Shown here: piece after piece, positions 24,908 to 60,644 of the stretch | Position numbering within the stretch: the stretch's first letter is position 1 | Layout of the letters: each line of letters opens with the position of its first letter | Notes under the pieces: generated by a model | Database searches by the model: none | What the model was told of the DNA's origin: nothing | What the model saw: the letters and a program-made list of their open reading frames with translations, nothing else | Program-made: the position numbers and the translations under genes | From: Actinomycetota bacterium | GTDB taxonomy: Bacteria; Actinomycetota; AC-67 | Assembly: GCA_040905475.1 (NCBI GenBank) | Contig: JBBDRM010000096.1 | Span: forward strand, 4,318 to 68,317 | Direction: 5' to 3' | Length of the DNA stretch: 64,000 nt

Positions 24908-24923
24908 AGGGCCGAAGGACCCT
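24908..24923. promoter_or_regulatory. DevR/DosR-type palindromic box candidate AGGGCCGAAGGACCCT
   Basis: 61 nt upstream of the P1-SQR operon start. Fits the recurring AGGGnCC-NN-GGnCCCT pattern. Confidence 0.4.
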
Positions 24924-25018
24924 CCGGATAGAGGCCGATAGATGGTGCCGCCACGTGGCCTCGATGCGGAGACTTCGAGCGTCGCGTGTGGTCACGAGCT
25001 GTGAGAGGCGTAATGCAG

Positions 25019-25516
25019 TTATCGCCGTCGGGAGGCCCGAGAGCCGGCGCGATGGGCCCGCCCAGACCGCGCATGTTCCTCGTCTGGTCGGCCGAGTCCT
25101 GGTCGGGCGCGCAGCGCCTCTCGGCGCAGGCCGGCGAAGCTCGTGCGAGCGAGCTTGGCCTCGAGCGCGGCCTGGGCATCGAACCACGCGTCGTGCACCG
25201 CGCAAGTTCCGTCGAGCCGGCAGGGGCCTCCGCGCAGGACGCACTTCTGGCTGCGGACCGGCCCCTCAGAGGCCTCGATCACCTCGAGCAGCGAGATCTC
25301 GCGGGCGGGTCGGGCGAGCGCATAGCCTCCGTCGGGCCCGGCGAGCGACGTCACCAGGCCGGCCTTGATGAGCGCGCCGAGCACCTGGGGGAGGAACTTC
25401 TCGGGCAGATCCATCTCCGAGGCGATCTCGCGGCCCTTCAGCCGACGCCCGGCGCGGGCGAGCGCCAGCACCGATCGCACTGCATAATCGCCCGTCTGGC
25501 CCAGCTCGATCCGCAT
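25019..25516 (-). CDS. Rrf2-family transcriptional regulator (NsrR/IscR-like, three clustered Cys)
   Basis: N-terminal wHTH (GDYAVRSVLALA...) and CVLRGGPCRLDGTCAVH. Divergent from the nirK operon. Confidence 0.85.
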   Translation of the reverse strand: MRIELGQTGDYAVRSVLALARAGRRLKGREIASEMDLPEKFLPQVLGALIKAGLVTSLAGPDGGYALARPAREISLLEVIEASEGPVRSQKCVLRGGPCRLDGTCAVHDAWFDAQAALEAKLARTSFAGLRREALRARPGLGRPDEEHARSGRAHRAGSRASRRR

Positions 25517-25535
25517 GACAACCTTGAGTTTACAG

Positions 25536-25562
25536 CTAAAGGTTCCTATGGTAAATCTTTAG
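25536..25562. promoter_or_regulatory. AT-rich imperfect inverted repeat CTAAAGgttcctatggtaaatCTTTAG, candidate Rrf2 operator/promoter
   Basis: The 62-bp gap 25517-25578 is conspicuously AT-rich in a GC-rich window and contains this repeat. Confidence 0.3.
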
Positions 25563-25578
25563 TTGGTGACTTAGGGTT

Positions 25579-26871
25579 ATGGGCGCAAGAGACGCAGTGG
25601 ACCGGCCGGCCGGACGTCGCGGGGTGACGGGCCTGTATCACCGCTCGGCGCAGGTGTGGGCGGCGGGGGCTCTCCTGGCGATGCTGCTGCCGCCTGGTGT
25701 GCGGCTGGGCTGGTGGCTTCCTCTCCATCTGGCGCTCGCCGGTGCCGTCTCGCAGTCGATCGTGGGTGGTCAGTTCCAGTTTTCCTCTGCGCTGGCGATG
25801 GCTCCTCCCTCGTCCCCGGTGTTCCCATTGGTCCGTCTGGGCGTCATGAACGTAGGTGCTCTTCTCATCGTCCTCGGTCGAGTGATCGGATCCCCGGAGA
25901 CCCTCGTCGTCGGCGCCGCCGCGCTCGGGAGCGCGATCCTGTGGGCGGCCGTCGCCGTGGACGGGATCTGGCGGCGTTCGATCGTGCGACGCTTCCCTGC
26001 CACTCGCGGGTTCTATCTCCTTGCGAGCGTGAGCATGCTTGGGGGTGCCGCGCTCGGCGCAGTCCTGGGCGGCGGGGCGTTCCAGTCCGGTGAGGCCTAC
26101 CTGTCGCACCGGCTGACGCACATGAGCCTGAACCTGTTCGGCTGGGCGGGACTTACCATCCTGGGAACGCTTATCACCTTCCTGCCGACCGTACTCCACG
26201 TCCGCGTACCGGCGGCGCGCGCCGCCGCGGCGACGCCGGCTGTGATCTTCTGCGGCCTCGGGCTGCTCGCGGCCGGCCTGGCTGCCGGCTTTGACGCTCT
26301 GGCGACGGCCGGCGGGTTGGGGTTCGCGGCGGGCCTCGCGCTGTTCGGACGCCAGGTCTTCGGTGTCCTCCGTCAGAGGCGTCCGCGCGCGGTCCCGGTT
26401 GTCGCTCGCCACCTGTTCGCCGGCCTCGGGTGGCTCGCCGTTGTGACGGTCGTGCAGGTGCCGCTGCTCGCGCGCGGCGATGCGGCGGCGCTGCGCGACC
26501 TGTGGGTCGTGGGGATCGGTGGCGGGCTGGTGCTGCAGGCGGTGATCGGATCCTGGGCGTTCCTGCTGCCGATGTCCCGGCCGACCACGCCGGCGCGCAA
26601 GGGTCGCGAGCTGGTGGCCTTCGAGGTCGGCGCCCGCGCGCAGGTCCTCGCCTACAACGCGGGTCTGGCGCTGGTGCTCCTCGCGCTACGCGGGTTCCTC
26701 CCGGGGCAAGCTGGGGCGGCGGGGATCGCGCTGGCCTGGTCGGCGGCGGCTTGGGCGCTCGCAAAGACCGTGGTGTTTCCGATGATGGCGCGCCAGCGTC
26801 GGGTGCACCGCGCCGCCGAGGAGTGGTGGTCACCGCGCGACGCGGGCCAGAGATCCGCAGCAGAGAGGTGA
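25579..26871 (+). CDS. polytopic membrane protein (about 12 TM), function unknown, first gene of the nirK operon
   Basis: 430-aa hydrophobic ORF ending 6 nt before nirK. An NnrS-like role is possible but no diagnostic motif was recognised. Confidence 0.65.
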   Translation: MGARDAVDRPAGRRGVTGLYHRSAQVWAAGALLAMLLPPGVRLGWWLPLHLALAGAVSQSIVGGQFQFSSALAMAPPSSPVFPLVRLGVMNVGALLIVLGRVIGSPETLVVGAAALGSAILWAAVAVDGIWRRSIVRRFPATRGFYLLASVSMLGGAALGAVLGGGAFQSGEAYLSHRLTHMSLNLFGWAGLTILGTLITFLPTVLHVRVPAARAAAATPAVIFCGLGLLAAGLAAGFDALATAGGLGFAAGLALFGRQVFGVLRQRRPRAVPVVARHLFAGLGWLAVVTVVQVPLLARGDAAALRDLWVVGIGGGLVLQAVIGSWAFLLPMSRPTTPARKGRELVAFEVGARAQVLAYNAGLALVLLALRGFLPGQAGAAGIALAWSAAAWALAKTVVFPMMARQRRVHRAAEEWWSPRDAGQRSAAER

Positions 26872-26877
26872 GCAGCG

Positions 26878-28338
26878 ATGAAGACGATGCCCGAAGTTCC
26901 CACCCAACAGCCCACGGCGCCACCGCCGCGGGATCCACGGCATGCCCACCGGGGGCTGAGCACCCTGTTCGGGGTGATGCTCATCCTGGTCGCCGTGCTC
27001 GCACTCATCACCGCGCTCATCGGGGGCGGCGACGTGCCGTCGAAGACCGACGCGGAGCTCAAGCTCACGCCGAAGGCCGAACTGCCGGTGATCGAGGCGC
27101 GGGAGGCGGTGAATTGGACCCATGCTCCAAACGTGCCGCCGCGGATCGATCGGAACGGGCAAGCACGGCTGGTGGTCAACTGGAGGGCGACCGAGTTCGT
27201 CGGCGACCTCGACGCGGCGAACAACGTCCGCTACTCGTACTGGGGCTTCGAGGGCTCAGTCCCCGGCCCGATCCTGCGGGCGCGGGTCGGAGACCTGGTC
27301 GAGGTCCATCTGACCAACGCCGCGGGCAACACCCATCCGCACAACATCGACTTCCATTTCGCAACGGGGCCCGGCGGCGGGGCGTCTGCGCTCAACGTCT
27401 CACCGGGTGAGACGGCAATCGTCGAGGTGCGCGCGCTGGCACCGGGGATCTACATGTACCACTGCGCCACGCCCGACATCCCCACCCATATCGCCAACGG
27501 CATGTACGGGTTCGTGATCGTCGAGCCCGAGGAAGGATTGCCGCCGGTCGATCACGAGCTGTACGTCGTGCAGTCCGAGTTCTACACCGCGCCCGGCGGC
27601 AAGGCGGCGCCCCTGACGCTGGATGTGAAGAAGCTCGACCTCGAGGAGCCCGACTACGTCGTGTTCAACGGCGCCACCGGCTCCCTGATGGGCGACAGCG
27701 CGCCACAGGTCAAGGTCGGGGATCGCGTTCGGATCTGGTTCGGGAACGCGGGGCCGCAGCTCATCTCTTCGTTCCACGTGATCGGCGAGATCTTCGACCG
27801 CGTGTACCGCGAGGGCGACCTCGTCTCGCCGCCCGCCCGGGGGGTGCAGACGACGCTCGTACCGGCCGGCGGTGCGACGGCGGTCGAGCTGACCGTCGAC
27901 GTCCCCGGCACCTACCTGCTCGTGGATCACGCGATCGCTCGCACGGTCCACAAGGGAGCCCTCGGCTCGATCATGGCGGAGGGCGCGGCGAACCCGGAGG
28001 TTTTCGCACCCGGCGCGGACAACCCGCCGCCGGCCGGCGATGACGGCCACGGCGGCGAACCCGCCGGGCAGCCCGTCACGATCACCCAGGGAGCCTGGGA
28101 TCAGGCCAACGCAGAGCACGCGTACGACCCCGCCGTGATCCGGGTCAAGGCCGGAACGACCGTTACCTGGACCAACGGCGACGAGGTCGCACACACCGTG
28201 ACGGCCGACGACGGAAGCTTCGATTCCGGGTTCCTGAACGCCGGCCAGTCCTGGAGTCACACGTTCACCGAGCCGGGAACCTACGCCTACCACTGCATCC
28301 CGCATCCCTGGATGAAGGGAACCGTTTTCGTCTCGTAG
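26878..28338 (+). CDS. nirK: copper-containing nitrite reductase with an N-terminal TM anchor and a C-terminal fused cupredoxin domain
   Basis: HPHNIDFH, YHCATPDIPTHIANGMYG, SSFHVIGE. The C-terminal 90 aa are plastocyanin-like (AHTVTADDGSFDSG...YHCIPHPWMKG). Confidence 0.9.
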   Translation: MKTMPEVPTQQPTAPPPRDPRHAHRGLSTLFGVMLILVAVLALITALIGGGDVPSKTDAELKLTPKAELPVIEAREAVNWTHAPNVPPRIDRNGQARLVVNWRATEFVGDLDAANNVRYSYWGFEGSVPGPILRARVGDLVEVHLTNAAGNTHPHNIDFHFATGPGGGASALNVSPGETAIVEVRALAPGIYMYHCATPDIPTHIANGMYGFVIVEPEEGLPPVDHELYVVQSEFYTAPGGKAAPLTLDVKKLDLEEPDYVVFNGATGSLMGDSAPQVKVGDRVRIWFGNAGPQLISSFHVIGEIFDRVYREGDLVSPPARGVQTTLVPAGGATAVELTVDVPGTYLLVDHAIARTVHKGALGSIMAEGAANPEVFAPGADNPPPAGDDGHGGEPAGQPVTITQGAWDQANAEHAYDPAVIRVKAGTTVTWTNGDEVAHTVTADDGSFDSGFLNAGQSWSHTFTEPGTYAYHCIPHPWMKGTVFVS

Positions 28339-28467: not shown

Positions 28468-29534
28468 ATGGAAGTCCAGACGATGTCGATGTTCTTCGCG
28501 CTCCTCACGGTGGTCGCGAACCTCGTCGTGCTGTCCGCGTCCGGGCTCTGGGTGTGGGGCAAGCTGACCGGGTACGGGAGCGAAGGAGCGGAAGGGCTGC
28601 GAGCGTGGATCGCCCCGCGGCCCTGCCGCTGGCCTGGGCGGTCGCTCTCGTCGCCACGACCGGGAGTCTCTACTACTCGGAGGTGGCGGGGTACGTCCCG
28701 TGCACGATCTGCTGGTACCAGCGCGTCGCGATGTACCCCATGGCGCTGGTGCTCTGCATCGCCTCTTTCCGCCGCGACTCGGCCATGCCCGGCTACAACG
28801 CGGCCGATGCGCTCGAAGCCTTGTCGCGGATCACGGAAGCCGCGATCGGCCCCGAGGCGGCCGCCACCGTCGACCAGCAGGTCGTCTGCGACCTGCCGGC
28901 GCGCGCGCTGGTCGAGGCGGCTGTGGGGAAGGAGCTGTTGGTTCTCGGCGCGCGTGGGCTGGGCGGGTTCCGCGGTCTGCTGGTCGGTTCAGTCAGCCAG
29001 CGCTGCCTCCGTCACAGCGCAACCCCGGTCGCCATCATCCGCAAGATCCCCGACGGACCGACCAACCGGGAAGAACGGGTCGTCGCCGCCGTCGACGGAT
29101 CGGACACGGCGAACAGAGCGCTGCGGTGGGCGCTCGAAGCGGCTCGAGTGCGAGGGGCTACCCTCGAGGTGGTCCATGCATGGCTTCCGCCATACATCGG
29201 CGGACTGGCGACCACTCCCTCTGAGAGCAGGCCGTACGAGCACGCTTCTCGGCAGGTCATCGACGCGGCGCTTGCCGCGGTCGACGCGGATACGTTCGAC
29301 GTTCCGATCAGGCCCATCTCGATCGAACGCTCGCCGGCGGGCGCGATCCTGGATGCTGCGGAGGGCGCGGATCTGGTGGTGATGGGCTCGCGCGGGCTCG
29401 GGGTGTTCAAGGGAGTGCTGATCGGATCAGTCGCGACGCAGGTGACGAACCACGCGACCTGTCCCGTGGTCGTCGTGCCCCCGAGCCGGCTCCAGATCGG
29501 CGAGGGCCCACGCAGACGGGCTGCACTCGAGTGA
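28468..29534 (+). pseudogene. chimeric/frameshifted ORF: DsbB/BdbC-like N-terminal half joined in frame to a truncated tandem universal stress protein
   Basis: Frame 1: [16 protein letters not shown]... Frameshift near 28609-28625. Then ...[39 protein letters not shown] stops resembling DsbB and continues as half a USP domain plus a full USP domain ([20 protein letters not shown]). Confidence 0.6.
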
Positions 29535-29625: not shown

Positions 29626-30087
29626 TCACCTCTGTGTCGCGGCCGGCGGGACACCGAAGCTTCGACCGCTGACGAGGGCCGTCTCGATCCGCAGGAAGCG
29701 GTCGGCGGACCCGTCCCTGAACGCCCAGGCGCGCAGCGGTAGGGCGCGAGCCTCCGCCAACTCGGAGGGATCGGTGATCTCCGAGCCCTGTCCGCAGATG
29801 AGGACGCTCCATCCCCACGCTCCGGCGGGATCGTGGTCGTCGACCTCGAATGCCACTACCCGCTGGTGGATGGCAGCATCCAGTTTGGTCCCGGGAACGG
29901 TGCGGATGACGATCTGATCGCCTGCGAGGGCGAAGTTGACGGGCAGGATCGCGGGAAGGGCCTGGATGCTCACGCCGAGCCGGCCTACCGTAACCGTTGC
30001 CAGCAGTGCTAAGCACTGCTCGCGGGTGAGCTCCTCCAATCGCTCAACGGGAGATGCGGTCGGGGATGCCTCAAGGTCGTGCTTCAT
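29626..30087 (-). CDS. pyridoxamine 5'-phosphate oxidase-family (FMN/F420-binding split-barrel) protein
   Basis: LTREQCLALLATVTVGRLGV...PVNFAL...VIRT pattern. Confidence 0.75.
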   Translation of the reverse strand: MKHDLEASPTASPVERLEELTREQCLALLATVTVGRLGVSIQALPAILPVNFALAGDQIVIRTVPGTKLDAAIHQRVVAFEVDDHDPAGAWGWSVLICGQGSEITDPSELAEARALPLRAWAFRDGSADRFLRIETALVSGRSFGVPPAATQR

Positions 30088-30240
30088 CGCGTCAGGGTTG
30101 AGGGATCATGGACGACCGCCCAGGACCCGACCTCGCATCGGCCTTTGGGGTTCCGCTGGAAGGATCGTGGTCTCGTGATCGACTCTTGCCTCCCGGTCCC
30201 GTGCCGCCGCCAGCGTCCACGCCAAGGCGACAGGGCGGAT

Positions 30241-30256
30241 AGGGTCGCCCGGCCCT
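30241..30256. promoter_or_regulatory. DevR/DosR-type box candidate AGGGTCGCCCGGCCCT
   Basis: About 150 nt upstream of the PPOX-family gene start (30087). Confidence 0.35.
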
Positions 30257-30289
30257 ACCCGGAGGGGCCTATCGGCGCCGGGCGCCGGT

Positions 30290-32328: not shown

Positions 32329-32663
32329 CGCTTCGCCCCCTTGGACGGTCGCCGCGCGCGCGGCGCCGCGCGCCGGCCCGTGCCTCGTCCGGCGGGCTGC
32401 AGGCTGTTCATCCGTGAGCCGCGCCGGGTGCGGCTCGGCGACGGTTGGGTCTCGCGAGGGAACCGCGCGACGTATTCGTGCTCCAGCTCGAGCATCCGGT
32501 CGGTGTGCGCGCGGATGGCGTGGGAACCGCCGTGGAGGATCGTCTCCTCGCGTGTGCGCCAGAGCCGACGCGACTCACGCTCGAAATCGCGATCGCTCAG
32601 CTTCGCCGCGGGCACGCCGAGCTTGCCGCCTCTCGGGGCCGCGGCTCCTTTCGATCCGCTCAT
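32325..32663 (-). CDS. conserved hypothetical protein (actinobacterial DUF6158-like)
   Basis: LSDRDFERESRRLWRTREETILHGGSHAIRAHTDRMLELEHEY. ATGA coupling at both ends. Confidence 0.5.
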   Translation of the reverse strand: MSGSKGAAAPRGGKLGVPAAKLSDRDFERESRRLWRTREETILHGGSHAIRAHTDRMLELEHEYVARFPRETQPSPSRTRRGSRMNSLQPAGRGTGRRAAPRARRPSKGAKR

Positions 32664-32917
32664 GACCGCCGCTCCGTGTGCGTCGTGCGCATACGGCACG
32701 TCCCGCGGCTCCAGGGGATGCCCGCTTCGAGCAGGCGGCAGGCGCCGGCGGCTGGATCGTAGTAGAAGCACTGCTCGTCACCACACTCGGGTTCGAGCAG
32801 GATCACGGCGTGGAGTCGGCTCGGACCGACCCCATCCGACTCGATCAGCCGCTGCCAGGCGTCCATATATGGATCCGCAGGCTGCGGCTTGCGTATGAGC
32901 AACGGCGCGTCGGCCAC
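32660..32917 (-). CDS. small Cys-rich protein (paralog of 43082-43378)
   Basis: AAGGAGG 6 nt before GTG 32917. Motif LLEPECGDEQCFYYDPAAGAC. Confidence 0.5.
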   Translation of the reverse strand: MADAPLLIRKPQPADPYMDAWQRLIESDGVGPSRLHAVILLEPECGDEQCFYYDPAAGACRLLEAGIPWSRGTCRMRTTHTERRS

Positions 32918-32989
32918 GGTGGCCTCCTTCACAGGGTCAGCGTTCCATCGCGAGGGGGAACCGGGCAGAGGCTTCAGGCCCCCGGACCG

Positions 32990-33006
32990 AGGGTCTCCCG
33001 GGCCCT
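32990..33006. promoter_or_regulatory. DevR/DosR-type box candidate AGGGTCTCCCGGGCCCT (17 nt)
   Basis: In the divergent gap between 32917 (-) and the USP gene at 33064 (+). Confidence 0.4.
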
Positions 33007-33063
33007 GCGTCGGGCGGCTGCCCCTGCCATGCTCGTGCCGAGGACCCTTTCGAGGGGGTTGAG

Positions 33064-34804: not shown

Positions 34805-34821
34805 AGGGCCGGATGCCCCCT
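34805..34821. promoter_or_regulatory. weak DevR/DosR-type box candidate AGGGCCGGATGCCCCCT
   Basis: In the divergent gap 34790-34966. The adjacent perfect palindrome CCCTGC-TC-GCAGGG is also present. Confidence 0.25.
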
Positions 34822-34966
34822 GCTCGCAGGGTCACGAGGCAGGCGCGGATGACGGAGCAGTCCGCGTCGATGGAGCCCGCAAAGGTCCCTGCGTCTCGGG
34901 GCCGCCCGACCCTCCCCCGGGCGGGGCTCGGCGCGGAGCATGTGTGTAGACGCCGGGGGTTACGCC

Positions 34967-39125: not shown

Positions 39126-39161
39126 CCCCGGTCGCCCGGCCGGCCGTCGGACCTCTCCGTG

Positions 39162-39178
39162 AGGGGCTCTTGGCCCCT
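39162..39178. promoter_or_regulatory. DevR/DosR-type box candidate AGGGGCTCTTGGCCCCT (17 nt)
   Basis: About 100 nt upstream of 39279. Confidence 0.4.
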
Positions 39179-40824: not shown

Positions 40825-40862
40825 CTCGAGCCGCCCCGACGGGTCACGGCGCCCCCCGGCTC

Positions 40863-40878
40863 CGGGCCCTTCGACCCT
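40863..40878. promoter_or_regulatory. DevR/DosR-type box candidate CGGGCCCTTCGACCCT
   Basis: 35 nt upstream of ATG 40913. Confidence 0.35.
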
Positions 40879-44342: not shown

Positions 44343-44358
44343 AGGGTCCTTGGGCCCT
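44343..44358. promoter_or_regulatory. DevR/DosR-type box candidate AGGGTCCTTGGGCCCT
   Basis: In the divergent gap between 44225 (-) and the CBS-BON gene at 44566 (+). Confidence 0.45.
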
Positions 44359-44565
44359 GCTTGGGCGGGGCGTTCGAGCGCTCTGCCGCGCGAGTTCGCC
44401 GGGGCCGGCTCGCCACGGGGCCATCGACCCGGAGGAGGCGGGCCTGTCGCCCCTGAGAGCTACGGCCGGCCCCGGCTAGATTGAGGCTGTTCCGAGAGGT
44501 AGAGGAAAGCCTATGGAGGTGGACCAAAGCCACTCGGAACATCCATTTCAGCGTTTGGAGGGCCG

Positions 44566-46714: not shown

Positions 46715-46795
46715 TCGTTCCTCCTTGGTAGAAGGCGCAGGTCACAGTACGAGCGGGCGCGCTGCTGGGGTGAGTGCCTGAGGTCCTCCCGGCTC

Positions 46796-46811
46796 AGGGC
46801 CGATCGGCCCT
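46796..46811. promoter_or_regulatory. DevR/DosR-type box, perfect 16-bp palindrome AGGGCCGATCGGCCCT
   Basis: 82 nt upstream of the zinc-ribbon gene start (46714). Confidence 0.5.
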
Positions 46812-47692: not shown

Positions 47693-47732
47693 TCCTCAAC
47701 ATGGATCTTGTGGGAGGCCGCGCCTCGCTCCC

Positions 47733-47748
47733 AGGGCCGATCGGCCCC
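47733..47748. promoter_or_regulatory. DevR/DosR-type box AGGGCCGATCGGCCCC (14-bp perfect palindromic core)
   Basis: In the divergent gap between the cupin operon (47692, -) and the ATPase remnant (47817, +). Confidence 0.5.
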
Positions 47749-47816
47749 GCCGGTGCGGTCCGCGCGGCCCAGGTGCGCCGCGCTCCCTGCCTCCTACCGT
47801 GTTGTCCCAGGAGATC

Positions 47817-48831
47817 ATGTTGAAGGCTGATCCCGCCCCTTCGGAGACGGCCGCCCGCGGCAGTCTCGTGCGAGCCGCCATGGCGACCACGGATGAGCTC
47901 ACCCGGGAGCTCGGCACCACACGCCAGGGACTGAGCGCAGGCGAAGCCGCCGCACGCCTCGGCCGTCTCGGAGAGAACCGGCTGCCCCAAGCGCACGGCC
48001 CGAGCCTCCCGCGTCAATTCGCCGACCAGTTGACCCATTTCTTCGCGCTCATCCTCTGGGTCGCCGCCGGACTGGCCTTCATAGCGGGGATGCCCCAGCT
48101 CGCGTGGGCGATCATCGCGGTTGTTCTCATCAACGGCGCGTTCAGCTTGGCACACGAGTACCGAGCCGAGCGGGCCACCCGCGCGCTCTCCGCGCTCCTG
48201 CCCCGCATCGCGACCGTGCTGCGCGACGGACGGAAGACCTCGGTGGACGCCGCCTATCTCGTGCCCGGCGACGTCATCCTGGTTCGCGAGGGTGACCGGA
48301 TCTCGGCCGATGCGCGGTTGATGCGCTCCGACGGGTTGAAGGTGGACAACTCCGCGCTCACCGGCGAGTCCGAACCCGTGCCGCGGAACGCGCAGACCGT
48401 TGCCGACCGCACGGAACCCCTCGAAGCGCCGAATCTGATCGCGACGCTTCCACTCGGAGCCGCGGTGTTCTTCGGATGGCGACCAGGTGAACCGCTTCCT
48501 TCGGAGGGCATCGCGCTCGCCACACTCTCGACCATGGTGTTCTCCGGGATCGTGCTCATGCAGATGGCCAACGCCTTCGAGTGCAGGAGCAACCCCCGTG
48601 TCGCTGTTCGCGATCCGGCCGCTCTCCAACCGGCTGCTCGTCGGGGCCGTGGCGACCGAGGCGATCGCCCTCGTGACGTTCGTCTACCTGCCGCCACTGC
48701 GGCGCGCGCTCGGACACCATGCGCTGTCGTGGAGACAGTGGGTCCCACTGATGGTCGCGCCTCTTATCCTGTTGGGCGCCGAGGAGACGCGGAAATGGAT
48801 GGCGCGACGGCTGCGGGCCGGCTCACCCTGA
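47817..48831 (+). pseudogene. P2-type cation-transporting ATPase remnant: N-terminal/actuator part joined to the last TM helices (P and N domains deleted), plus a frameshift in a C5 run near 48593-48598
   Basis: GLSAGEAAARL, TGESEPVPR ... EAPNLI joins directly to ATLPLGAAVFF...ANAFECRSNP. The next frame gives SLFAIRPLSNRLLVGA...EETRKWMARR. No DKTGT anywhere. Confidence 0.7.
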
Positions 48832-48841
48832 GCGGTCGCGC

Positions 48842-49948: not shown

Positions 49949-50000
49949 GCTCGTCCCAACCGGTTCCCGCCCAGCCTGACCGGTACCGAGTCGCGGAGGA

Positions 50001-50016
50001 AGGGTCGATCGGTCTC
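50001..50016. promoter_or_regulatory. weak DevR/DosR-type box candidate AGGGTCGATCGGTCTC
   Basis: In the divergent gap between 49948 (-) and 50217 (+). The right arm is degenerate. Confidence 0.3.
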
Positions 50017-50216
50017 ATCCTGTGGGGTCGAACGCCTCCGCTGAATCGCCCGACGGTCCTCCGCCCCTCCGAAGCCGGGCCGGAGGGCCCTGCCGATCCC
50101 GTCCGCGGAGGGCAACGATCGCAGAAGCGCCGGCCGAGCCGGCAGGTCCACGAGGGAGGCATAGCCATCGCCGCGATCGAGGTCGACCAAGCCCGGAAGG
50201 CCGAGGAGCGCATCGG

Positions 50217-52984: not shown

Positions 52985-53643
52985 CCGCCGCGACGCCACC
53001 CCGTCTCCACCACGGGGTCATTGGCCCCGCGGTGCGGGACCCGGATGGCCCTGGCAGAGGCGAGGCGCGACCGTCTATGCCTATGGAGGAGCAAGGAGTG
53101 GCGGTGCACGGGACGTGGGTGGTCCTGCTCGTGGAAGCGGATCCCGAGGCGACCGAGCGGCTGGGCGCCTGGCTCGGCCGCGACGGCTATTGGGTGCTCA
53201 CGTGCGCCGGGCCGCTCGCGCCCACCTACACGTGCCCTGGCGGGCAGGGGGAGCGATGCCCTCTTGTCGAACTCGCCGACGTGGTCGTGCTCGACCTCCA
53301 GCTCGAAACCGACACGATGATGGAAGGAGTGCCCGGGTGGCAGCTCATGCTCTACTACCTGTCGATCGGGAAGCCGGTGGTCGCGCTCGCCGATCCCGGG
53401 GATGCCATCCAGCTGGCGTCGGACGAGTCCGTGGTGGTCCTGTCGCGCAGGCCGACGCGCGACGAGCTCACGGTAGCCGTCCGCTCGCTGCTCGGGGAGG
53501 CGGAGCCGGCCCGGCTGCCGGCGCGCGCAGAGACGATCCCGCTCCGTCCCGAGCGCGCCGCCTCGGAGGACGCCGTTATCGATGTCACCGAGGCTTCAGA
53601 TGGGCCGAGCGAGACGGTGGCTGCGAAGGGGGGCGCGCGATGA
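52981..53643 (+). CDS. receiver-like protein with Cys triad (family member P2)
   Basis: ATGA-coupled to the USP gene. VVLLVEADPEATERLGAWLGRDGYWVLTCAGPLAPTYTCPGGQGERCPLVELADVVVLDLQL. Confidence 0.6.
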   Translation: MTAATPPRLHHGVIGPAVRDPDGPGRGEARPSMPMEEQGVAVHGTWVVLLVEADPEATERLGAWLGRDGYWVLTCAGPLAPTYTCPGGQGERCPLVELADVVVLDLQLETDTMMEGVPGWQLMLYYLSIGKPVVALADPGDAIQLASDESVVVLSRRPTRDELTVAVRSLLGEAEPARLPARAETIPLRPERAASEDAVIDVTEASDGPSETVAAKGGAR

Positions 53644-54092
53644 GCCGGGCAGCGGCCGGCACCGCGGACGCGGCGGAGAGCGCGCGCAAGCGCCGGCTCG
53701 TGCTCCTGGTGGGCCCTGACTCCGAAGGGCGGCGTGATCTCGCGCGCGCCCTGATCGAGGGTGGCCACTCCACGGTCATCTGCTCCGGTCCTCCGGGTTG
53801 CGTGCTGCTGAGAGAGGATCGCTGCGTGCTCGTGGACGCCGCCGACGTCACCGTCATCATGCCCTCGCATTCCTCGCGCCGCGAGGTGACATCGGCGCTC
53901 GCGCTGTGCGCGCGGGAGGCCAGGAATGCCGTGATCGTCGAGCCATCGCTCATCGAGCAGACGCCGCCCGGCGCGGAGATCGTGCCTTCGGCCAAGACCA
54001 AGGTCGTCCTCGAGGCCGTGGAGCGGGCACTCGAGCGCGGCCGTGGAAGCGCACGAAAGGGGGTCGCCGATGTCGCCGACATCTGGCTCTGA
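53640..54092 (+). CDS. receiver-like protein with Cys triad (family member P3)
   Basis: ATGA-coupled. LVLLVGPDSEGRRDLARALIEGGHSTVICSGPPGCVLLREDRCVLVDAADVTVIM. Confidence 0.6.
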   Translation: MSRAAAGTADAAESARKRRLVLLVGPDSEGRRDLARALIEGGHSTVICSGPPGCVLLREDRCVLVDAADVTVIMPSHSSRREVTSALALCAREARNAVIVEPSLIEQTPPGAEIVPSAKTKVVLEAVERALERGRGSARKGVADVADIWL

Positions 54093-54460: not shown

Positions 54461-54760
54461 TCACGGTGCCGACGCCGAGCCGCCGAAAAACCTCTTCGCG
54501 TTCTCCGCGTGCTTGTAGCCTTCCACCGACCACTCGCACGTGGGCGGATCCGTGCAGCGCGGGTCGCCTTCGCCGGTGGCGAAGTTGTAGTTGCACTCGG
54601 GGCAGAAGACCTTGAGGTCCTCCGGGAGGTACGGACAGTCGTACCAGTTGCACGAGCGCGTGCCCTCCCCGGTGAGGAAGTTGTAGCTGCATCCCGGGCA
54701 CTGGCGAAAGGCGAAGGTAGGCTCCGCTCGAGCTTCCCGCGTCCGCCTCAGCCAGCCCAT
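54461..54760 (-). CDS. Cys-rich protein with an internal duplication (CPxCxYNFxTGEGxxxC twice)
   Basis: QCPGCSYNFLTGEGTRSC ... FCPECNYNFATGEGDPRC, 10 Cys in 99 aa. Confidence 0.6.
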   Translation of the reverse strand: MGWLRRTREARAEPTFAFRQCPGCSYNFLTGEGTRSCNWYDCPYLPEDLKVFCPECNYNFATGEGDPRCTDPPTCEWSVEGYKHAENAKRFFGGSASAP

Positions 54761-54809
54761 GGTGCGCCTCCTCAGGTGCCCATCGTTTCGCCTGACCGCG
54801 TGCGCGACC

Positions 54810-54886
54810 AGGGCCGGTTGGCCCCCGTCGCGCTAGCCGGGTAGCCCCGTGCCGCCGTGCGGGAAATTGGCAGGTCCATCGGCCCT
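54810..54886. promoter_or_regulatory. two DevR/DosR-type box candidates: AGGGCCGGTTGGCCCC (54810-54825) and AGGTCCATCGGCCCT (54872-54886)
   Basis: In the divergent gap between 54760 (-) and 54921 (+). Confidence 0.45.
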
Positions 54887-54920
54887 TCGAAGCGCGCCGC
54901 GCCTGGCCGACGATAGGGGC

Positions 54921-55385
54921 ATGTTCATCCGGTATTACGTCGAGCTCCCGATGGCCTTCGCGGAGACCGAAAAGGCTCTTCTCCGGTCACCCGATGCCAT
55001 ACTCGGAGACCTGGCCCGTCGGGCCTACGCTCGGGGGGAGTCCCTCCTGACCGAGGTGGGATTCGACGTCGGGGGACGCCGGCTCGCCAAGCGAGTCGCC
55101 GTCGAGCTGCACGAGCCCGTCCGGTTCGACTCCAAGACCACGCTTCCGATGACCTGGCACGCCACTGGCCCGGATGGGCTCTTCCCGAGCCTCGAGGCCG
55201 ACCTCGAGATCGCCCCGCTCGGTCGCAGCTCCACCCAGCTCGCCATCAGCGCCCGGTATCCCCCTCCGCTGGGAGCGCTGGGGCGCGCGCTCGATCGTGG
55301 CGTGCTCCACCGGGTCGCGGAAGCCGCCGTCAAGGACTTCCTCGACCACGTGGGGCGCGCGCTGATCGACAGCGCGGCCGCGTGA
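54921..55385 (+). CDS. hypothetical protein
   Basis: 154 aa starting at MFIRYYVELPMAF. Good codon bias, no motif recognised. Confidence 0.5.
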   Translation: MFIRYYVELPMAFAETEKALLRSPDAILGDLARRAYARGESLLTEVGFDVGGRRLAKRVAVELHEPVRFDSKTTLPMTWHATGPDGLFPSLEADLEIAPLGRSSTQLAISARYPPPLGALGRALDRGVLHRVAEAAVKDFLDHVGRALIDSAAA

Positions 55386-55403: not shown

Positions 55404-55607
55404 TCATGCTCCAATCGCTGGAGCGCGGAGCCGCCGGATGCGAGGAACGATCGTCATCAGAGCAGCCGGCGCCGCGCCGCCCGCCAGCACGAGTATCCAC
55501 TCTCTCGCCTCGAGCTGCGCGGTGCCGAACACGCGCTGAAGCGGGCCTACGGTCACGACGGCGAGCTGGAGCGCGAGGCCGGCCGCGACGGCCAGCACGA
55601 GCCACAC
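55404..55607 (-). pseudogene. isolated C-terminal fragment (last TM helices) of a P-type cation ATPase
   Basis: WLVLAVAAGLALQLAVVTVGPLQRVFGTAQLEAREWILVLAGGAAPAALMTIVPRIRR matches only the Cation_ATPase_C end. There is no room for the rest of the gene. Confidence 0.45.
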
Positions 55608-56601: not shown

Positions 56602-58131
56602 CTACTCGGCGACCAGAGCGGCGAGCGCCTCCAGCGCGTCTGGCGGTGGTGGAGGTGCGTCGAGCGCGCGCAGCCCCTCCTCCAGCGCTTCCTCGGGTGG
56701 ACGCGTCGTGTCGATCGTGCGCGCATCGGGCCACGGGTCTGCTCGCATGAGCATCGCGCGGGCGGTTTCCGGGGTGGCGTCGGACGCGTCGCCGCCTTCT
56801 CGGTTGCGTGCTCGGAGCCGGTCCGCCGCGAGCGCGTGCGGCGCCGCGCAGCGGAGCTCGACGAGATCGGCGTACGCGCCGGCGGCGGCTGCGGCGGCTG
56901 CCTCACGCAGGTGGCGATCGGTCCACGACGCGTCCAGCACGACCGAGTCGCCCAGGGCGATCGCTCGCCGCGCCCGGGCGAGCATCTCCCGGTAGGTCCT
57001 CTCGGTCATCTCGCGCGTGTAGATCCCCGCGGCGTACTCGGCGGGCGCGCGCTCGGAGTGCGCGATTCCGGCGAGATCTTTGCGCACCTCGTCCGAGCGG
57101 ATGAGCGCCCAGCGGCGGGCGTCGGCGATCCCGAGCGCGAGCGTCGACTTCCCCGTGCCGGGGAGCCCGCCCACGAGCACGATGACGGGCCGGGCGCGGG
57201 TCAGCCTCTCGTGGGCGAGCCGGAGGAGTCGAGCGGCCTCGGCTCTCGCCGGTCGCTCGCCCTGTTCGGCGCGGATGCAGGCGACCTTCGAGCGCACCAG
57301 CGCGCGGTAAGCGATGTAGTGATCGGCGAGGCTCGACGGGAACGGGTCGCCGGAGAACTCCCGGTACCACGCCACCAGCCGGTCGGCGAGCTCCGGGCGT
57401 TCCAGGCGCTCGATGTCCATCGCGAGGAAGGCGATGTCGGCGACGACATCTGCGTAGCGGAACCGGTCGTTGAACTCGATGCAGTCGAGGATGCGAGGGC
57501 CGTCGTCGAGGCAGAAGATGTCGTCGGCGAGCAGATCGCCGTGCCCGTCGCGGACCCGTCCCTCGGACGCCCGGAGGCGGAAGAGCCGCCCTCGCGCGTC
57601 CAGATACCGATGCGCGAGCGCGCGCACGCGCTCGAATCCATCCGCCGGCAGCAGGGAACCCACATATGGCGCCATCTCGCTGAAGTTGTCGTCCCAGTTC
57701 TTCCGGACTGCGTCGGGGGTCCCGGCGCGCGTGATCTCCTCCGAGGTGACCGCGCGCTCGTGGAACGCGGTGATCGTGCGCGCGATGCTTCGCAGGCAAC
57801 CGTCGACGTCGGCTCGGCGGGAGATGAGCGTCGAGAGGCGTCGCGGCGCGGGCATCCGCCGCATGGCGACCAGATGGTCGCAGGGAGCGCCGTCGGGGCC
57901 GATCAGGTCGACCACGCCGAGGTAGACGTCGGGGGCGAGGCGCCGGTTGAGCTCGACCTCCCGCCGGCAGGCGGCTTCGCGCTGCTCGCGCGTCGAGAAG
58001 TCGAGGAACGCGAACCTGACTGGCCTCTTCAGCTTGTACGCGCGATCCCCAACGAAGAACAGGTGCGAGATGTGTGTCGTCACCACCGAGGCCTGCGGGC
58101 GGGCGGCGGATGCCGGCGCGATGCGCGTCAT
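56602..58131 (-). CDS. bifunctional aminoglycoside-phosphotransferase-like / AAA (P-loop kinase) protein, Rv2004c-like
   Basis: APH-like DGHGDLLADDIF, then Walker A GGLPGTGKST. Confidence 0.85.
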   Translation of the reverse strand: MTRIAPASAARPQASVVTTHISHLFFVGDRAYKLKRPVRFAFLDFSTREQREAACRREVELNRRLAPDVYLGVVDLIGPDGAPCDHLVAMRRMPAPRRLSTLISRRADVDGCLRSIARTITAFHERAVTSEEITRAGTPDAVRKNWDDNFSEMAPYVGSLLPADGFERVRALAHRYLDARGRLFRLRASEGRVRDGHGDLLADDIFCLDDGPRILDCIEFNDRFRYADVVADIAFLAMDIERLERPELADRLVAWYREFSGDPFPSSLADHYIAYRALVRSKVACIRAEQGERPARAEAARLLRLAHERLTRARPVIVLVGGLPGTGKSTLALGIADARRWALIRSDEVRKDLAGIAHSERAPAEYAAGIYTREMTERTYREMLARARRAIALGDSVVLDASWTDRHLREAAAAAAAGAYADLVELRCAAPHALAADRLRARNREGGDASDATPETARAMLMRADPWPDARTIDTTRPPEEALEEGLRALDAPPPPPDALEALAALVAE

Positions 58132-58577
58132 GAGGCCGCCTTCACGGACGGCGCAGACCGAGTTCCTCTTCCGCCCTTGCCCGTTCCGAGGAGCCTCTCC
58201 ACCGCAGATGTAACAGCTTGCGCACCGGAGTACTTCTCGATCGCCTCCATGGGGCCACGCCCGCCCACGTCATCGGGCGATCCCACGGATACGACGAGCA
58301 TCGGCCGCCGGCCGTAGACCGGATGCGCACGGTAGGCCTTCAGGAGGTGGATCCCCCGGTAGGTCCGGCCTCGTATCGGACCGAACAGCGGGCACGAGAA
58401 CACGATGAGTTCGGCGGCGTCGGCGAGCGGGCACGCCCCGTACTTGAGCATCGGGCACGCGGCGAACGGTGTCGGGCCGCCGCCGCACCGGATCACCCGG
58501 TGTCCCGCCTGCTCCAACAGACCCGCCTCGTACAGGCCGAGGTCGGGGACGTCTTCGACGAGCAGCACCGTCGCCAT
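58128..58577 (-). CDS. receiver-like protein with Cys triad (family member P4)
   Basis: MATVLLVEDVPDLGLYEAGLLEQAGHRVIRCGGGPTPFAACPMLKYGACPLADAAELIVFS. The stop is ATGA-coupled to the kinase gene. Confidence 0.65.
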   Translation of the reverse strand: MATVLLVEDVPDLGLYEAGLLEQAGHRVIRCGGGPTPFAACPMLKYGACPLADAAELIVFSCPLFGPIRGRTYRGIHLLKAYRAHPVYGRRPMLVVSVGSPDDVGGRGPMEAIEKYSGAQAVTSAVERLLGTGKGGRGTRSAPSVKAAS

Positions 58578-58622
58578 GTCGGCCACCCACGGAAAGACTC
58601 GCAGTCCCAGGCTCTCGGGGGC

Positions 58623-58661
58623 AGGGCCGAGCGTCCCCCCGGCGAGGGGGCGGCGGCCCCT
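58623..58661. promoter_or_regulatory. two DevR/DosR-type box candidates: AGGGCCGAGCGTCCCC (58623-58638) and AGGGGGCGGCGGCCCCT (58645-58661)
   Basis: 46-84 nt upstream of the P4 start (58577). Confidence 0.4.
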
Positions 58662-58690
58662 ATTTGATTCGCCCTGGAACGGCGAGCGTG

Positions 58691-58937
58691 ATGGTGAAGG
58701 CAAGCCCCCACGGGATCCCGACGGCCGGCTTCCGGGTCGACTGCGACTTCGAGATGAGCGATGACGCGCGGTCGCGCGTGACTGCCGCTCGCCTCCACCT
58801 CGTGCTGCCGGCATCGTTCCCCGCGGAGCGCCGCCAAGCGCTTCTGCGTGTCGCGGAGCAGTGCACCGTTGCACAACTCGATCCGCAACGCGCCGGAGGT
58901 GACCATCACCACCACCGGAGCCGAGCAAGCGGCCTGA
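58691..58937 (+). pseudogene. 5'-truncated, frameshifted OsmC-family fragment
   Basis: ...RLHLVLPASFPAERRQALLRVAEQCTV, then a second frame gives NSIRNAPEVTITTTGAEQAA-stop. The N-terminal half of the domain is missing. Confidence 0.45.
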
Positions 58938-58954
58938 GGAGGAAGGGAGCGGTC

Positions 58955-59693
58955 GTGAGACGTACCGTCAAGGACGTGATGACGCGCGACGTCGTCGTCG
59001 CGCGAGACTCCTGGGTCATTCAAGAACGTCGTGCGGCACCTGAGAGCTTCCGGGGTCAGCGCTCTCCCGGTAGTTGATCCTGAGGGACGCGCCCTCGGCA
59101 TCGTCTCGGAGGCAGACCTGTTGCTCAAGGAGAAATGGGCGGCGGTGGGGGAACATCACGGGGTGCTTGCGTGGGCGCGCGGGCGTCGCGAGCGCCGCAA
59201 GGCCGAGGCGCTGACCGTGCGCGAGCTCATGACGTCGCCGGTGATCACTGCCGGCCCGGACGACACGCTCGGCGCCGCCGCACGCCTGATGCACGAGCGC
59301 GGCGTGAAGCGCCTCCCGGTCGTCGATGCCGACGGGAAGGTAGTCGGGATCGTGAGCCGGCAGGACCTCGTGAAGATCTTCCTGCGGCCCGACGACGAGA
59401 TCCGGAACGACGTCGTGCGCGACGTGATCCACCGCTCCCTCTGGCTCGACCCTCGAGTCGTGCGCGTGGATGTCACTGATGGCGTCGTAACCCTGGAGGG
59501 AAGGCCCGAGAACAAGAGCCTCGTCGAGATCCTCATCGGACTCGTTCGAGGGATGGACGGCGTTGTCGGCATCGTTCCTCGCCTGTCATTCGAGATCGAC
59601 GACACTCGCGTACGGCCGGACGTGCCGCTGCCCTGGCGCGTCCTGCCGCCGAGCCTGCGGTACCCGTCGCCACGGCAACGGCGAGCGAGGTGA
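58955..59693 (+). pseudogene. CBS-pair plus BON domain protein, frameshifted near 59015-59020 (possibly a sequencing error)
   Basis: GAGGAGGAAGGGAG RBS, VRRTVKDVMTRDVVVARDS in one frame. FKNVVRHLRASGVSALPVV...BON in the next. Confidence 0.7.
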
Positions 59694-59699
59694 TCGGCG

Positions 59700-60241
59700 A
59701 TGTCCATGCACACCAAACCTCTCAGGGAGGAACACGAGGAGTTGCGGATCTGGGTCGACACGCTCAAGGAGACGGGGATCGGGTCGGGTACGTTTCTGTC
59801 GGGATCCTCCGTGACCTCATCGATGAGGCCTATGAGTTCCTCACGCATCATCTGATCCCCCACGCGGTCGCCGAGGACGAGGTGCTGTATCCGGCCGTCG
59901 CGCGCCTGATGGGCGCCTCCGAGGCGACGGCGACGATGAGCCGCGATCATGTGGAAGTGGAGAAGCTCACCCAGGAGCTGAGCGCCCTGCGCGCCCACCT
60001 GGCTGCGACGACGCCGGGAGACCTGCAAGCGAAGACGCTGCGCCGGAACCTGTACGCGCTGCACGCGCTGATCTCGCTGCACTTCGCCACGGAGGAGGAG
60101 GTCTACCTCCCGATCCTCGACGCGCGGCTCTCCGAGGGGGAGGCGGCCGGGGTCTTCGCGCGCATGGAGGAGGCCGAGCACGTGGCGCGCGGACGCGCCG
60201 CGGAACACGCGGTTCCCGGCAGCCGATCCCTGCGGGCGTAG
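59700..60241 (+). pseudogene. hemerythrin-like domain protein, frameshifted in a G run near 59770-59778 (possibly a sequencing error)
   Basis: MSMHTKPLREEHEELRIWVDTLKETG in one frame. DRVGYVSVGILRDLIDEAYEFLTHHLIPHAVAEDEVLYP...HFATEEEVYLP in the next. Confidence 0.7.
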
Positions 60242-60259
60242 CGCCGGCCTCGAGCGTCG

Positions 60260-60547
60260 TCAGTTGCTCCAGGTGCTCAGAGGACCCGCTTCGGCCGCGA
60301 AGCCCTCGTAGAGGGCCGCCGCGACGAGCGGGTCGAGGTTGGCGAGCTCGGGTCCCCGCCGGGGATGCCGCCCCGAGTCCTGGACGGTCGTGTAGCCCAG
60401 CTCCATCGCGTCGCCGATCAGGTAGGTGCCGCGGGCCGGCGCGAACGCCTCGCCCGCGTAGCCGACGCGGCCCCAGGCCGCTTTGGCGCCCAGAACGTCG
60501 CCGCCGGCAGCCAGCCGGTTCCCATCGGTGCCCCGTGAAGCACGCAT
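60260..60547 (-). CDS. hypothetical protein (possibly a gene fragment)
   Basis: 95-aa ORF with strong GC3 bias. No motif recognised. Confidence 0.3.
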   Translation of the reverse strand: MRASRGTDGNRLAAGGDVLGAKAAWGRVGYAGEAFAPARGTYLIGDAMELGYTTVQDSGRHPRRGPELANLDPLVAAALYEGFAAEAGPLSTWSN

Positions 60548-60581
60548 ACGGCGAGTAGACCGGCGCCGGCCTGCCGATCCA

Positions 60582-60644
60582 AGGGCCGATCGGACCGCCG
60601 CCGCTCGGGTCTGAGGCCTCCGCGGTCGGGGGTCCTTCGGCCCT
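60582..60644. promoter_or_regulatory. two DevR/DosR-type box candidates: AGGGCCGATCGGACCG (60582-60597) and GGGGTCCTTCGGCCCT (60629-60644)
   Basis: 70-130 nt upstream of the NarL-family regulator gene (60715), as expected for autoregulation. Confidence 0.5.

Follow-up and report, generated by a model that had tools for sequence, protein, structure and literature searches.

This study concerned a recurrent palindrome in the intergenic DNA of a 64-kb stretch (69% GC; hereafter the window) of contig JBBDRM010000096.1, from an uncultured soil bacterium of the phylum Actinomycetota. The palindrome is a 16-bp box with the consensus (A)GGGNC-N4-GNCCC(T) and, judging from sequence comparison, it very probably (at roughly 85%) constitutes the operator site of a response regulator of the DevR/DosR/OsdR type encoded at 60715-61407. 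The motif itself is not new, being the already published box of the OsdR/DosR family, and the window represents a new and clean example of a known system, with about 20 promoters carrying such boxes within 36 kb. An earlier note on this DNA had read the palindrome as a GC-shifted DevR/DosR box served by the regulator at 60715; the consensus, the match of this protein to DevR and the conservation of its base-reading residues all agree with that reading.

The gene map of the window was made with our own codon-usage caller, followed by Pfam annotation (genes are cited below by their g numbers); 84% of the window was called coding, and the label 'intergenic' depends on this caller. Dinucleotide shuffles served as background, 100 for the pattern search and the core in the window and 500 for intergenic DNA. 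All 16 strings listed in the earlier note were found, each once, exactly where it had been reported and in a gap of the gene map. With at most one mismatch, AGGGNCN4GNCCCT matched the window 21 times, against 3.4 ± 1.9 in shuffled sequence, and none of the 100 shuffles reached that count. The exact core GGGNC-N4-GNCCC occurred 17 times (shuffled, 4.3 ± 2.0, with a maximum of 9, so that again no shuffle reached it), and these copies were all intergenic, with none in coding sequence where about 3.6 were expected, and all within 24.9-60.7 kb. With the shuffling confined to the 5.4 kb of intergenic DNA between 24.8 and 60.7 kb, the 17 exact cores stood against 0.85 ± 0.92, and the richest of the 500 shuffles held 5. 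The possibility raised in the earlier note, that the motif might be as frequent in coding or shuffled DNA as in promoter gaps, is contradicted by these counts. At least one exact box was present in 13 of the 22 gaps of 60 bp or more in the cluster, and two boxes with one mismatch each lie in a further gap, at 32.9 kb.

The spacer proved to be fixed. Among spacers of 0-10 nt, N4 was the sole one enriched (spacers of 0-3 and 5-10 nt gave 0-6 matches), and nearly all N3 or N5 core matches were N4 boxes in a shifted register, read through GGGG or CCCC runs. The palindrome of 16-17 bp described previously is real, but its proposed N2-3 spacer and variable length give way to one box of constant 16-bp length whose core spacer is N4. 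The half-sites in the window are GGGCC and GGGTC. When the inverted repeats of the intergenic DNA were enumerated without bias, GGCC-N4-GGCC and GGGCC-N4-GGCCC emerged as the top palindromes, with AGGG-N8-CCCT and GGGC-N6-GCCC also ranked at the top, all of them sub-windows of one box. True 17-bp or 15-bp variants, of which five had been listed, were rejected: three of the '17-mers' (34805, 39162 and 58645) prove to be N4 boxes with an exact core that had been read off-register, the fourth (32990) is a one-mismatch 16-mer that can also be read as an exact N5 core, and what was listed as a '15-mer' at 54872 begins at 54871 and is a 16-mer with one mismatch. Exact boxes with 16-mer starts at 34898, 44416, 44439, 50076 and 53014 had been overlooked, and the 23-bp tandem partners of most boxes were also absent from the earlier list.

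The enrichment does not depend on a motif drawn from the window itself. The OsdR box of Streptomyces coelicolor, AGGGCCGATCGGCCCT, was compiled from 12 Streptomyces species and confirmed in electrophoretic mobility shift assays with point mutants (Urem et al. 2016, mSystems, PMC5069765). A position weight matrix (PWM), made independently from 25 of the published S. coelicolor sites so as to avoid circularity, gave 8 matches of at least 12 bits in the window, where 1.0 was expected; 6 were intergenic, as were all 4 matches of at least 14 bits. High-GC loci recovered in a metagenome scan with the GH65 protein (best identity 57%) were reused as a negative control, and showed no enrichment of the N4 core.

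The protein encoded at 60715-61407 (+) combines a receiver (REC) domain with a GerE/LuxR helix-turn-helix (Pfam Response_reg, 7.8e-24; GerE, 9e-17), and is the sole NarL-type regulator in the Pfam-annotated gene map of the window. Its closest solved structure was DevR (3c3w, E 1.7e-54, 188 bits), ahead of VraR (165 bits) and NarL (117 bits), and the alignment with DevR gave 50% identity over 204 aa (E 1e-63). The corresponding identity of OsdR to DevR is 61% (PMC5069765). The recognition-helix stretch LAEKTVKNYVS is identical to that of DevR and includes K179, K182 and N183, the residues that read the GGGACT/TGTCCC motifs in a cryo-electron microscopy structure of DosR with RNA polymerase and promoter (2026, PMC13486717). 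Also kept were the phospho-acceptor D54 (in VMDVRL), N167, T180, Y184 and R196/R197. Upstream of the regulator gene lie three boxes in tandem (60582..60644, +), at 60582 (AGGGCCGATCGGACCG), 60606 (CGGGTCTGAGGCCTCC) and 60629 (GGGGTCCTTCGGCCCT), followed by a -10 element, TAGCGT, at 60667-60672 and a predicted transcription start site (TSS) near 60679. Autoregulation had been proposed from two of these boxes; the presence of three, and of boxes upstream of orthologous regulator operons elsewhere, strengthens that proposal.

The wider occurrence of the system was examined in 80 independent loci anchored on related regulators, from metagenome-assembled genomes (MAGs) of Actinomycetota, Chloroflexota and Dormibacterota and from Streptomyces and Kitasatospora. 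The nearest regulators among species-representative genomes were 70-77% identical and belonged to MAGs assigned to Actinomycetota, Chloroflexota and Candidatus Dormibacterota, assignments that can err, while Streptomyces matches were about 60% identical. Across the 80 loci, 112 of 179 N4 cores (63%) were intergenic, compared with about 16% for other spacers and an intergenic share of 11.5% of the sequence. In ten loci (L003, L004, L005, L007, L009, L011, L012, L013, L051 and L075) the regulator was accompanied by a GAF kinase with 37-48% identity to that of the window, and most of these also held a homologue of g72, a small gene of the window described below. Exact boxes lay directly 5' of the module of kinase, g72-like gene and regulator in seven loci (L003, L004, L005, L011, L012, L013 and L075). 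The S. coelicolor PWM gave no match of at least 12 bits upstream of any regulator in the 80 loci, because it is biased against GGGAC/GGGTC half-sites and because the regulators are second or third in their operons; the generic core pattern resolved the discrepancy. A literature search of incomplete coverage returned no paper linking DosR to Chloroflexota or Dormibacterota.

A different protein, either a second DevR-like paralog or another helix-turn-helix protein encoded outside the window, might bind the boxes, with the 60715 protein being only their target or a co-user. The contig extends beyond the 64 kb of the window, DevR-like proteins whose recognition helix is nearly the same occur commonly and sometimes as orphans, and cross-talk is discussed in the OsdR paper (PMC5069765). 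Set against this are the position of the 60715 protein as the only regulator of its type in the window, the three boxes in front of its gene and the boxes in front of the operons of its orthologues in ten or more other genomes, and an off-window binder is judged improbable.

The boxes are tied to promoters by a fixed geometry, which further supports their assignment as regulator sites. In the window, 11 of the 24 box orientations that face a gene have a -10-like ANNNT (A-11, T-7) at exactly +38, counted from the start of the box (background 0.54, P 1.6e-12), as against 1 of the 10 that do not face one; in the 80 loci it stood at +38 in 33 and at +39 in 21 of 135 cases (background 3.9, P 2.8e-21), and there too the signal was confined to gene-facing orientations. 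The gap between box and ANNNT is 22 nt, and the box centre lies 31.5 nt 5' of A-11, which places the box at about -42.5. All 18 promoters with a box and an ANNNT face a gene. Tandem partners (at most one mismatch) at exactly 23 bp numbered 9 in the window, against a background of 0.19, and partners at 22-23 bp in the other loci numbered 19 + 10, against 1.05. The tandem pairs 32967/32990, 47733/47756 and 58623/58646 each serve divergent promoters. In the tgs1 promoter of Mycobacterium tuberculosis the boxes are likewise centred at -42.5, with a second at -63.5, i.e. 21 bp apart, and DevR promoters are described as characteristically having their boxes in tandem (Chauhan et al. 2011, PMC3177182). 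The predicted TSS (box start + 50) coincided with the independently called start codon of g42 (32932), g52 (40913) and g72 (54921), and missed that of g19 (12528) by no more than 1 nt. This agreement implies leaderless mRNAs and cross-validates the geometry, so that several transcripts of the regulon appear to be leaderless.

The -10 elements are weak (their first base is rarely T) and a separate -35 element is not visible, a combination that points to class II activation. A site centred at -42.5 also overlaps the -35 region, and would be compatible with a regulator that binds the boxes and mainly represses by occluding that region; deletion of OsdR both up- and down-regulates S. coelicolor genes (PMC5069765). 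However, weak -10 elements without an evident -35 are typical of activator-dependent promoters, the same geometry activates in M. tuberculosis (PMC3177182), and an activation complex of DosR with RNA polymerase has been solved (PMC13486717), so that a mainly repressive role seems very unlikely, though repression at some promoters is conceivable. The palindromes could also be imagined as structural or repetitive elements (hairpins, terminators, or sequences resembling repetitive extragenic palindromes or miniature inverted-repeat transposable elements) rather than protein sites, since their GC-rich 6-bp arms and 4-nt loop could fold and all copies are intergenic. This hairpin or terminator reading was rejected because arm positions 5 and 12 do not covary: complementary bases stand at the two positions in 5 of the 17 boxes, where chance would give 6.4, with no compensatory changes. 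The flanks of the boxes are not conserved, their distance to the -10 elements is fixed, they occur as 23-bp tandems upstream of genes, a scan of the window gave no Rfam match, and no T run followed any box in the inspected flanks (no terminator scan was made), all of which makes a structural origin scarcely credible. A tRNA scan of the window was also empty. A chance product of a 69% GC genome, in which GGGCC and GGCCC words are common, can be practically dismissed, as no shuffle reached the observed counts, only N4 was enriched, coding sequence held no copy against about 3.6 expected, and the high-GC control loci were unenriched.

Taking the boxes as operators of the 60715 regulator, the system would work as follows. 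A phosphorylated dimer of the regulator would bind the 16-bp (A)GGGNC-N4-GNCCC(T), its likely kinase being the GAF-HisKA_3 protein encoded at 37956-39125, and the recognition-helix equivalents of DevR K179, K182 and N183 would read the GGG..C half-sites. On sites that are mostly tandem, at 23 bp centre to centre, the proximal box at about -42.5 would replace the -35 element, and the regulator would recruit RNA polymerase to a weak -10 (nANNNT) by class II activation, as DevR does in M. tuberculosis. The roughly 20 promoters in the 36 kb would be wired in this way, several as divergent pairs on one tandem site and several leaderless, and would drive genes for USP, CBS/BON, cupin, PNPOx-like, GH65/OtsB1-like, NAPRTase, M50-CBS, hemerythrin and uncharacterised proteins. 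The three boxes upstream of the regulator's own gene would add positive autoregulation.

The protein encoded at 37956-39125 (+) is a sensor histidine kinase resembling DevS, DosT and OsdK, with a single GAF, a HisKA_3 and a HATPase_c domain by Pfam. It is the only HisKA_3 kinase in the window, and is the candidate cognate partner of the regulator. The best PDB matches of its GAF segment were GAF-A of DosT (2vzw, 1.9e-7) and DevS (2y79, 1.2e-6). A possible third component is g72 (54921..55385, +), a box-driven gene with a predicted leaderless transcript, for which 783 homologues were found, all annotated as hypothetical. Its AlphaFold model (pLDDT 75, pTM 0.72) matched SRPBCC/START/Bet v 1 folds (best E 1.8e-5, TM about 0.5), and a g72-like gene sits between the GAF kinase and the regulator in L003-L008, a position which suggests that the protein may serve the two-component system as a ligand-binding accessory. 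Neither g72 nor g31, g68, g69 and g77 had a Pfam match (even at E <= 1) or an NCBIfam match.

Several observations count against assigning the boxes to a DosR-type system under the 60715 regulator. Two DNA-backbone contacts of DevR are changed in this protein (Q153 to H, K168 to G), and no DevR or OsdR model of NCBIfam matched it, the best model being MadR with 180 bits, against a cut-off of 300. The kinase gene lies 22 kb from that of the regulator, whereas the two are neighbours in the related loci L003-L013, L051 and L075. The tandem spacing of 22-23 bp differs from the 21 bp at M. tuberculosis tgs1, and cooperative contacts may differ accordingly. The gene coordinates come from our own caller and the TSSs are predicted, although Pfam backs many of the flanking genes. 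Streptomyces loci with a near-identical helix (EKTIKNY) showed little local box enrichment, from which it follows that the helix type alone does not predict neighbouring boxes, and that an off-window paralog could share the sites; these Streptomyces regulators are probably a paralog distinct from OsdR, with targets elsewhere. The comparison of EKTVKNY with EKTIKNY loci (0.9 versus 0.5 boxes per 10 kb) was too weak to separate the two. The Streptomyces and Kitasatospora loci L022-L047 encode DevR-like orphans with the EKTIKNY helix, lacking an adjacent GAF kinase and having a 2-oxoacid-dehydrogenase/PP-binding-like neighbour. Finally, the heme-ligand His of DevS and DosT is not conserved in the kinase: in HMMER alignments of low identity, which make this negative a provisional one, the query has K/T opposite the HH/H of the ...(H)HPPMRTFLGVPV motif.

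DevS and DosT carry two GAF domains, and their proximal heme ligands are H149 and H147, respectively. The lack of the corresponding His weakens the case for a hypoxia or nitric oxide sensor of the DevS/DosT type, but not the assignment of the regulator and box to the DosR/OsdR type. The hypoxia or nitric oxide signal suggested in the earlier note is not established, given a kinase with a single GAF domain and without that His. A more speculative view, which we regard as doubtful, is that the window represents a DosR/OsdR branch found widely among the uncultured Actinomycetota, Chloroflexota and Dormibacterota of soils. This branch would depart from the mycobacterial model in having a heme-less single-GAF sensor, a conserved SRPBCC companion with which the kinase works, and hence a small-molecule or metabolic trigger rather than O2, NO or CO, and cooperative binding at a tandem spacing of 22-23 bp in place of 21 bp; its regulon would include Cys-bearing pseudo-receivers. 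If this were true, DosR-type dormancy control would be an ancient, cross-phylum module of the Terrabacteria with interchangeable inputs.

The promoters of the cluster, from left to right, begin with box AGGGCCGAAGGACCCT (24908..24923, -), which serves g31 (24263-24838, a Cys-containing receiver-like protein) through a -10 GATGGT at 24880-24885. The tandem boxes 30241 (exact) and 30264 (one mismatch; 30241..30279, -) point toward g36 (PNPOx-like, 29626-30087), with a -10 GACGCT at 30212-30217 at an offset of +39. The pair 32967 and 32990 (one mismatch each; 32967..33005) is shared by two divergent promoters, that of g42 on the minus strand, where the -10 AACGCT at 32939-32944 gives a predicted TSS near 32932, the start codon, and that of the USP gene g43 on the plus strand (-10 CATGCT, 33028-33033). 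Box 34805..34820 (-), written AGGGCCGGATGCCCCC in plus-strand letters, has a degenerate partner at 34828 and serves g44, a DUF2157 membrane protein (-10 CAGGAT, 34777-34782). Box GGGGCCGCCCGACCCT (34898..34913, +) serves the operon of g45 (baeRF family 10), g46 (FBPase_3) and g48 (YbaK-like) through a -10 GAGCAT at 34936-34941; the called start of this operon, 34940, is probably too far upstream. A degenerate box at 39140 and box 39162/39163 (AGGGGCTCTTGGCCCCT), whose register is ambiguous (39140..39178, +), precede g50 and g51 (NAPRTase), with a -10 GAGACT at 39201-39206. The tandem boxes 40840 (one mismatch) and 40863 (exact; 40840..40878, +) serve g52, followed by g53 (adenosine kinase), g54 (DUF1918) and g55 (LOG); the -10 AACGAT at 40901-40906 predicts a TSS near 40913, which is the start codon of g52 and would make this transcript a leaderless one.

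In the middle of the cluster, box AGGGTCCTTGGGCCCT (44343..44358, -), with a degenerate partner at 44366, serves g58 (CMD) and g57 (OsmC; -10 GAGGCT, 44315-44320), and the tandem exact boxes 44416 and 44439 (44416..44454, +) serve g59 (CBS-CBS-BON; -10 TAGATT, 44477-44482). The perfect consensus box 46796, which is the distal one of a pair with a degenerate proximal box at 46773 (46773..46811, -; -10 TACTGT, 46744-46749), looked orphaned at first, between convergent genes, until an unannotated open reading frame (ORF) for a Cys-rich protein of 67 aa was recognised behind it (46511-46714, -), with an AAGGAGG ribosome-binding site; the ORF had fallen below the size-and-score filter of the caller. 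The pair 47733 (exact) and 47756 (one mismatch; 47733..47771) is divergent, serving g63 (Cupin_7) and g62 (CBS) on the minus strand (-10 CAAGAT, 47705-47710) and, on the plus strand, the remnant of a CtpF-like P-type ATPase (ORF 47817-49067; -10 TACCGT, 47795-47800). Two further tandem pairs stand back to back, the degenerate boxes 50001 (two mismatches) and 50024 (one mismatch; 50001..50039, -) in front of g65, an M50 protease with CBS (-10 CAGGCT, 49973-49978), and boxes 50053 (one mismatch) and 50076 (exact; 50053..50091, +) in front of g66 (GH65, OtsB1-like) and g67 (double USP; -10 AACGAT, 50114-50119).

On the right, the exact box 53014 and a degenerate box at 53037 (53014..53052, +) lie upstream of g68-g69, both Cys-containing receiver-like paralogs, and no -10 was assigned there. 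Box AGGGCCGGTTGGCCCC (54810..54825, -) serves g71, a Cys-rich protein of 99 aa (-10 AACGAT, 54782-54787), and the one-mismatch box CAGGTCCATCGGCCCT (54871..54886, +) serves g72, whose -10 GACGAT at 54909-54914 predicts a TSS near 54921, the start codon. The tandem exact boxes 58623 and 58646 (58623..58661) are divergent, with g77 (receiver-like Cys protein) and g76 (APH-like + AAA_33) on the minus strand (-10 GAGTCT, 58595-58600) and an unannotated ORF at 58691-59077 on the plus strand (-10 GAGCGT, 58684-58689), possibly followed by g78 (CBS-BON) and g79 (hemerythrin). A candidate outlier lies outside the cluster, in the copper island described below, where the one-mismatch box 12479 (GAGGCCGTTCGACCCT) and a degenerate box at 12456 (12456..12494, +) are followed at +38 by a -10 GACGCT (12517-12522). 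The predicted TSS, near 12529, adjoins the start (12528) of g19, which encodes a CsoR-like protein; this could be a stray DosR-type promoter or a chance match.

The families driven by the boxes comprise USP, CBS and CBS-BON, cupin, PNPOx-like, OsmC, CMD, hemerythrin, GH65/OtsB1-like, NAPRTase, M50-CBS protease, APH-like/AAA_33 and DUF1918 proteins and the decayed CtpF-like ATPase. They had been called typical DosR-regulon families, a description that holds at the level of Pfam families, where they resemble the mycobacterial and Streptomyces regulons, and only at that level. The links to individual mycobacterial proteins are of the same kind: the best PDB match of the DUF1918 protein g54 was Rv2302 (7e-14), and the CBS protein g40 matched Rv2626c at 7e-9, which was not its best match. 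The double USP g67 had no PDB sequence match at 1e-5, and no homologues of hspX, acg-type nitroreductase, narK2/narX, tgs1 or fdxA were seen in the window.

Some members of the regulon are less familiar. Four paralogs with a receiver-like 'VLLVE' start (24263-24838, -; 53077-53643, +; 53640-54092, +; 58128-58586, -) share three invariant Cys (C-x-G-P ... C ... C-P-L) and all lie behind boxes; L006, L010 and L012 have homologues in the neighbourhood of the regulator. A role of these proteins as pseudo-receivers that sense redox state or metals is possible. Small Cys-rich ORFs of the CxxC type were found at 46511-46714 (-), 54461-54760 (-), 32660-32932 (-) and 43082-43378 (-), at least three of them directly box-driven. 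The box-driven operon of a release-factor-like gene of baeRF family 10 (34940-36121) and an archaeal-type class V FBPase_3 gene (36131-37228, Pfam E 7.5e-172) is an unusual pairing for a stress regulon. Remnants of P-type ATPases include the ORF behind the 47733/47756 pair (47817-49067, +), which has the N-terminal and actuator parts, and Cation_ATPase_C fragments at 48598-48831 (+) and 55404-55607 (-), in what looks like gene decay inside the regulon. Other fragments are of 2-oxoacid dehydrogenase (45217-45771 and 62560-63069) and of DsbB, the latter fused to a double USP (28605-29534).

Two neighbouring units are set apart from the boxes. A nirK-like gene (26878-28338) for a copper nitrite reductase that carries an additional cupredoxin at its C-terminus comes after a gene for a membrane protein and is divergent from a regulator of the Rrf2 family (25019-25516). 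The intervening gap, 25517-25623, carries no DosR-type box, as had been noted before for the surroundings of nirK, and this makes Rrf2/NsrR-type control of the nirK unit probable. The left 22 kb of the window (1400-22300) is an unrelated copper/metal-resistance island with genes for a TetR regulator, several cupredoxins, an ECF sigma factor, a MacB-type ABC transporter, a CsoR-like repressor (12528-12833), an OmpR-type regulator with a HisKA kinase, and a CopA-type P1B ATPase with HMA and YHS domains (18565-21516). The earlier statement that no boxes occur in the island at 1.6-22.9 kb is correct for exact boxes, but misses the one-mismatch box at 12479. The island ends at a gene for a phage-type integrase (21573-22244, -), which suggests that it is a mobile insertion beside the dormancy cluster.

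The value of the window lies in the concentration of its DosR/OsdR-type promoters on one contig of an uncultured high-GC soil bacterium, and in a promoter grammar (the box at -42.5, tandems, and shared divergent promoters) that can be read from the DNA, where footprinting was needed in M. tuberculosis. MAGs assigned to three phyla share this grammar. The finding opens no new class of element, and its leads are the 22-23-bp spacing, the kinase without a heme His, the SRPBCC companion and the unannotated members of the regulon, all of which bear on the signals of DosR-type systems outside pathogens.

In comparison with known systems, the window shares with the class II activators NarL, VraR and LiaR the REC + GerE architecture, binding as a dimer on an inverted repeat (here predicted) and a HisKA_3 partner kinase, but the recognition sequence and residues are specific to DevR, and NarL and VraR scored below DevR. 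The likeness to DevR/DosR is closer, and includes palindromic GGGNC...GNCCC half-sites with essential G and C, the retained K179, K182 and N183, a proximal box centred at -42.5, tandem boxes as a rule, and divergent promoters that share a tandem pair (as at tgs1-Rv3131). The families in common with the M. tuberculosis regulon, at family level, are USP, CBS, CtpF-like ATPase, GH65/OtsB-like, PRTase, NAPRTase, M50-CBS and DUF1918. The two differ in the half-site, which is GGGCC/GGGTC here and GGGAC in M. tuberculosis, and in the one-GAF kinase without a heme-ligand His and the SRPBCC-fold companion that is conserved in the module.

The closest counterpart is the OsdR (SCO0204)/OsdK (SCO0203) system of S. 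coelicolor. Unlike that system, the one in the window belongs to an organism other than a Streptomyces, and its kinase, with one GAF domain, is encoded at a distance from the regulator; the 23-bp tandem spacing and the placement at -42.5 were not found in the part of the OsdR description consulted (PMC5069765). The same source predicts 27 elements, at a relaxed cut-off, across SCO0167-0181 and SCO0198-0219, a lower box density than that of the approximately 20 promoters in 36 kb reported here, and describes OsdR as a functional orthologue of DevR that binds M. tuberculosis DevR targets (PMC5069765). In both systems a NarL-family, DevR-like regulator has a site upstream of its own gene (at -81 in S. 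coelicolor), a single chromosomal region with many USP, PNPOx-like and hemerythrin genes holds the cluster of sites, and the 16-bp consensus, AGGGCCGATCGGCCCT, is identical, letter for letter, to the consensus of the window and to its box at 46796.

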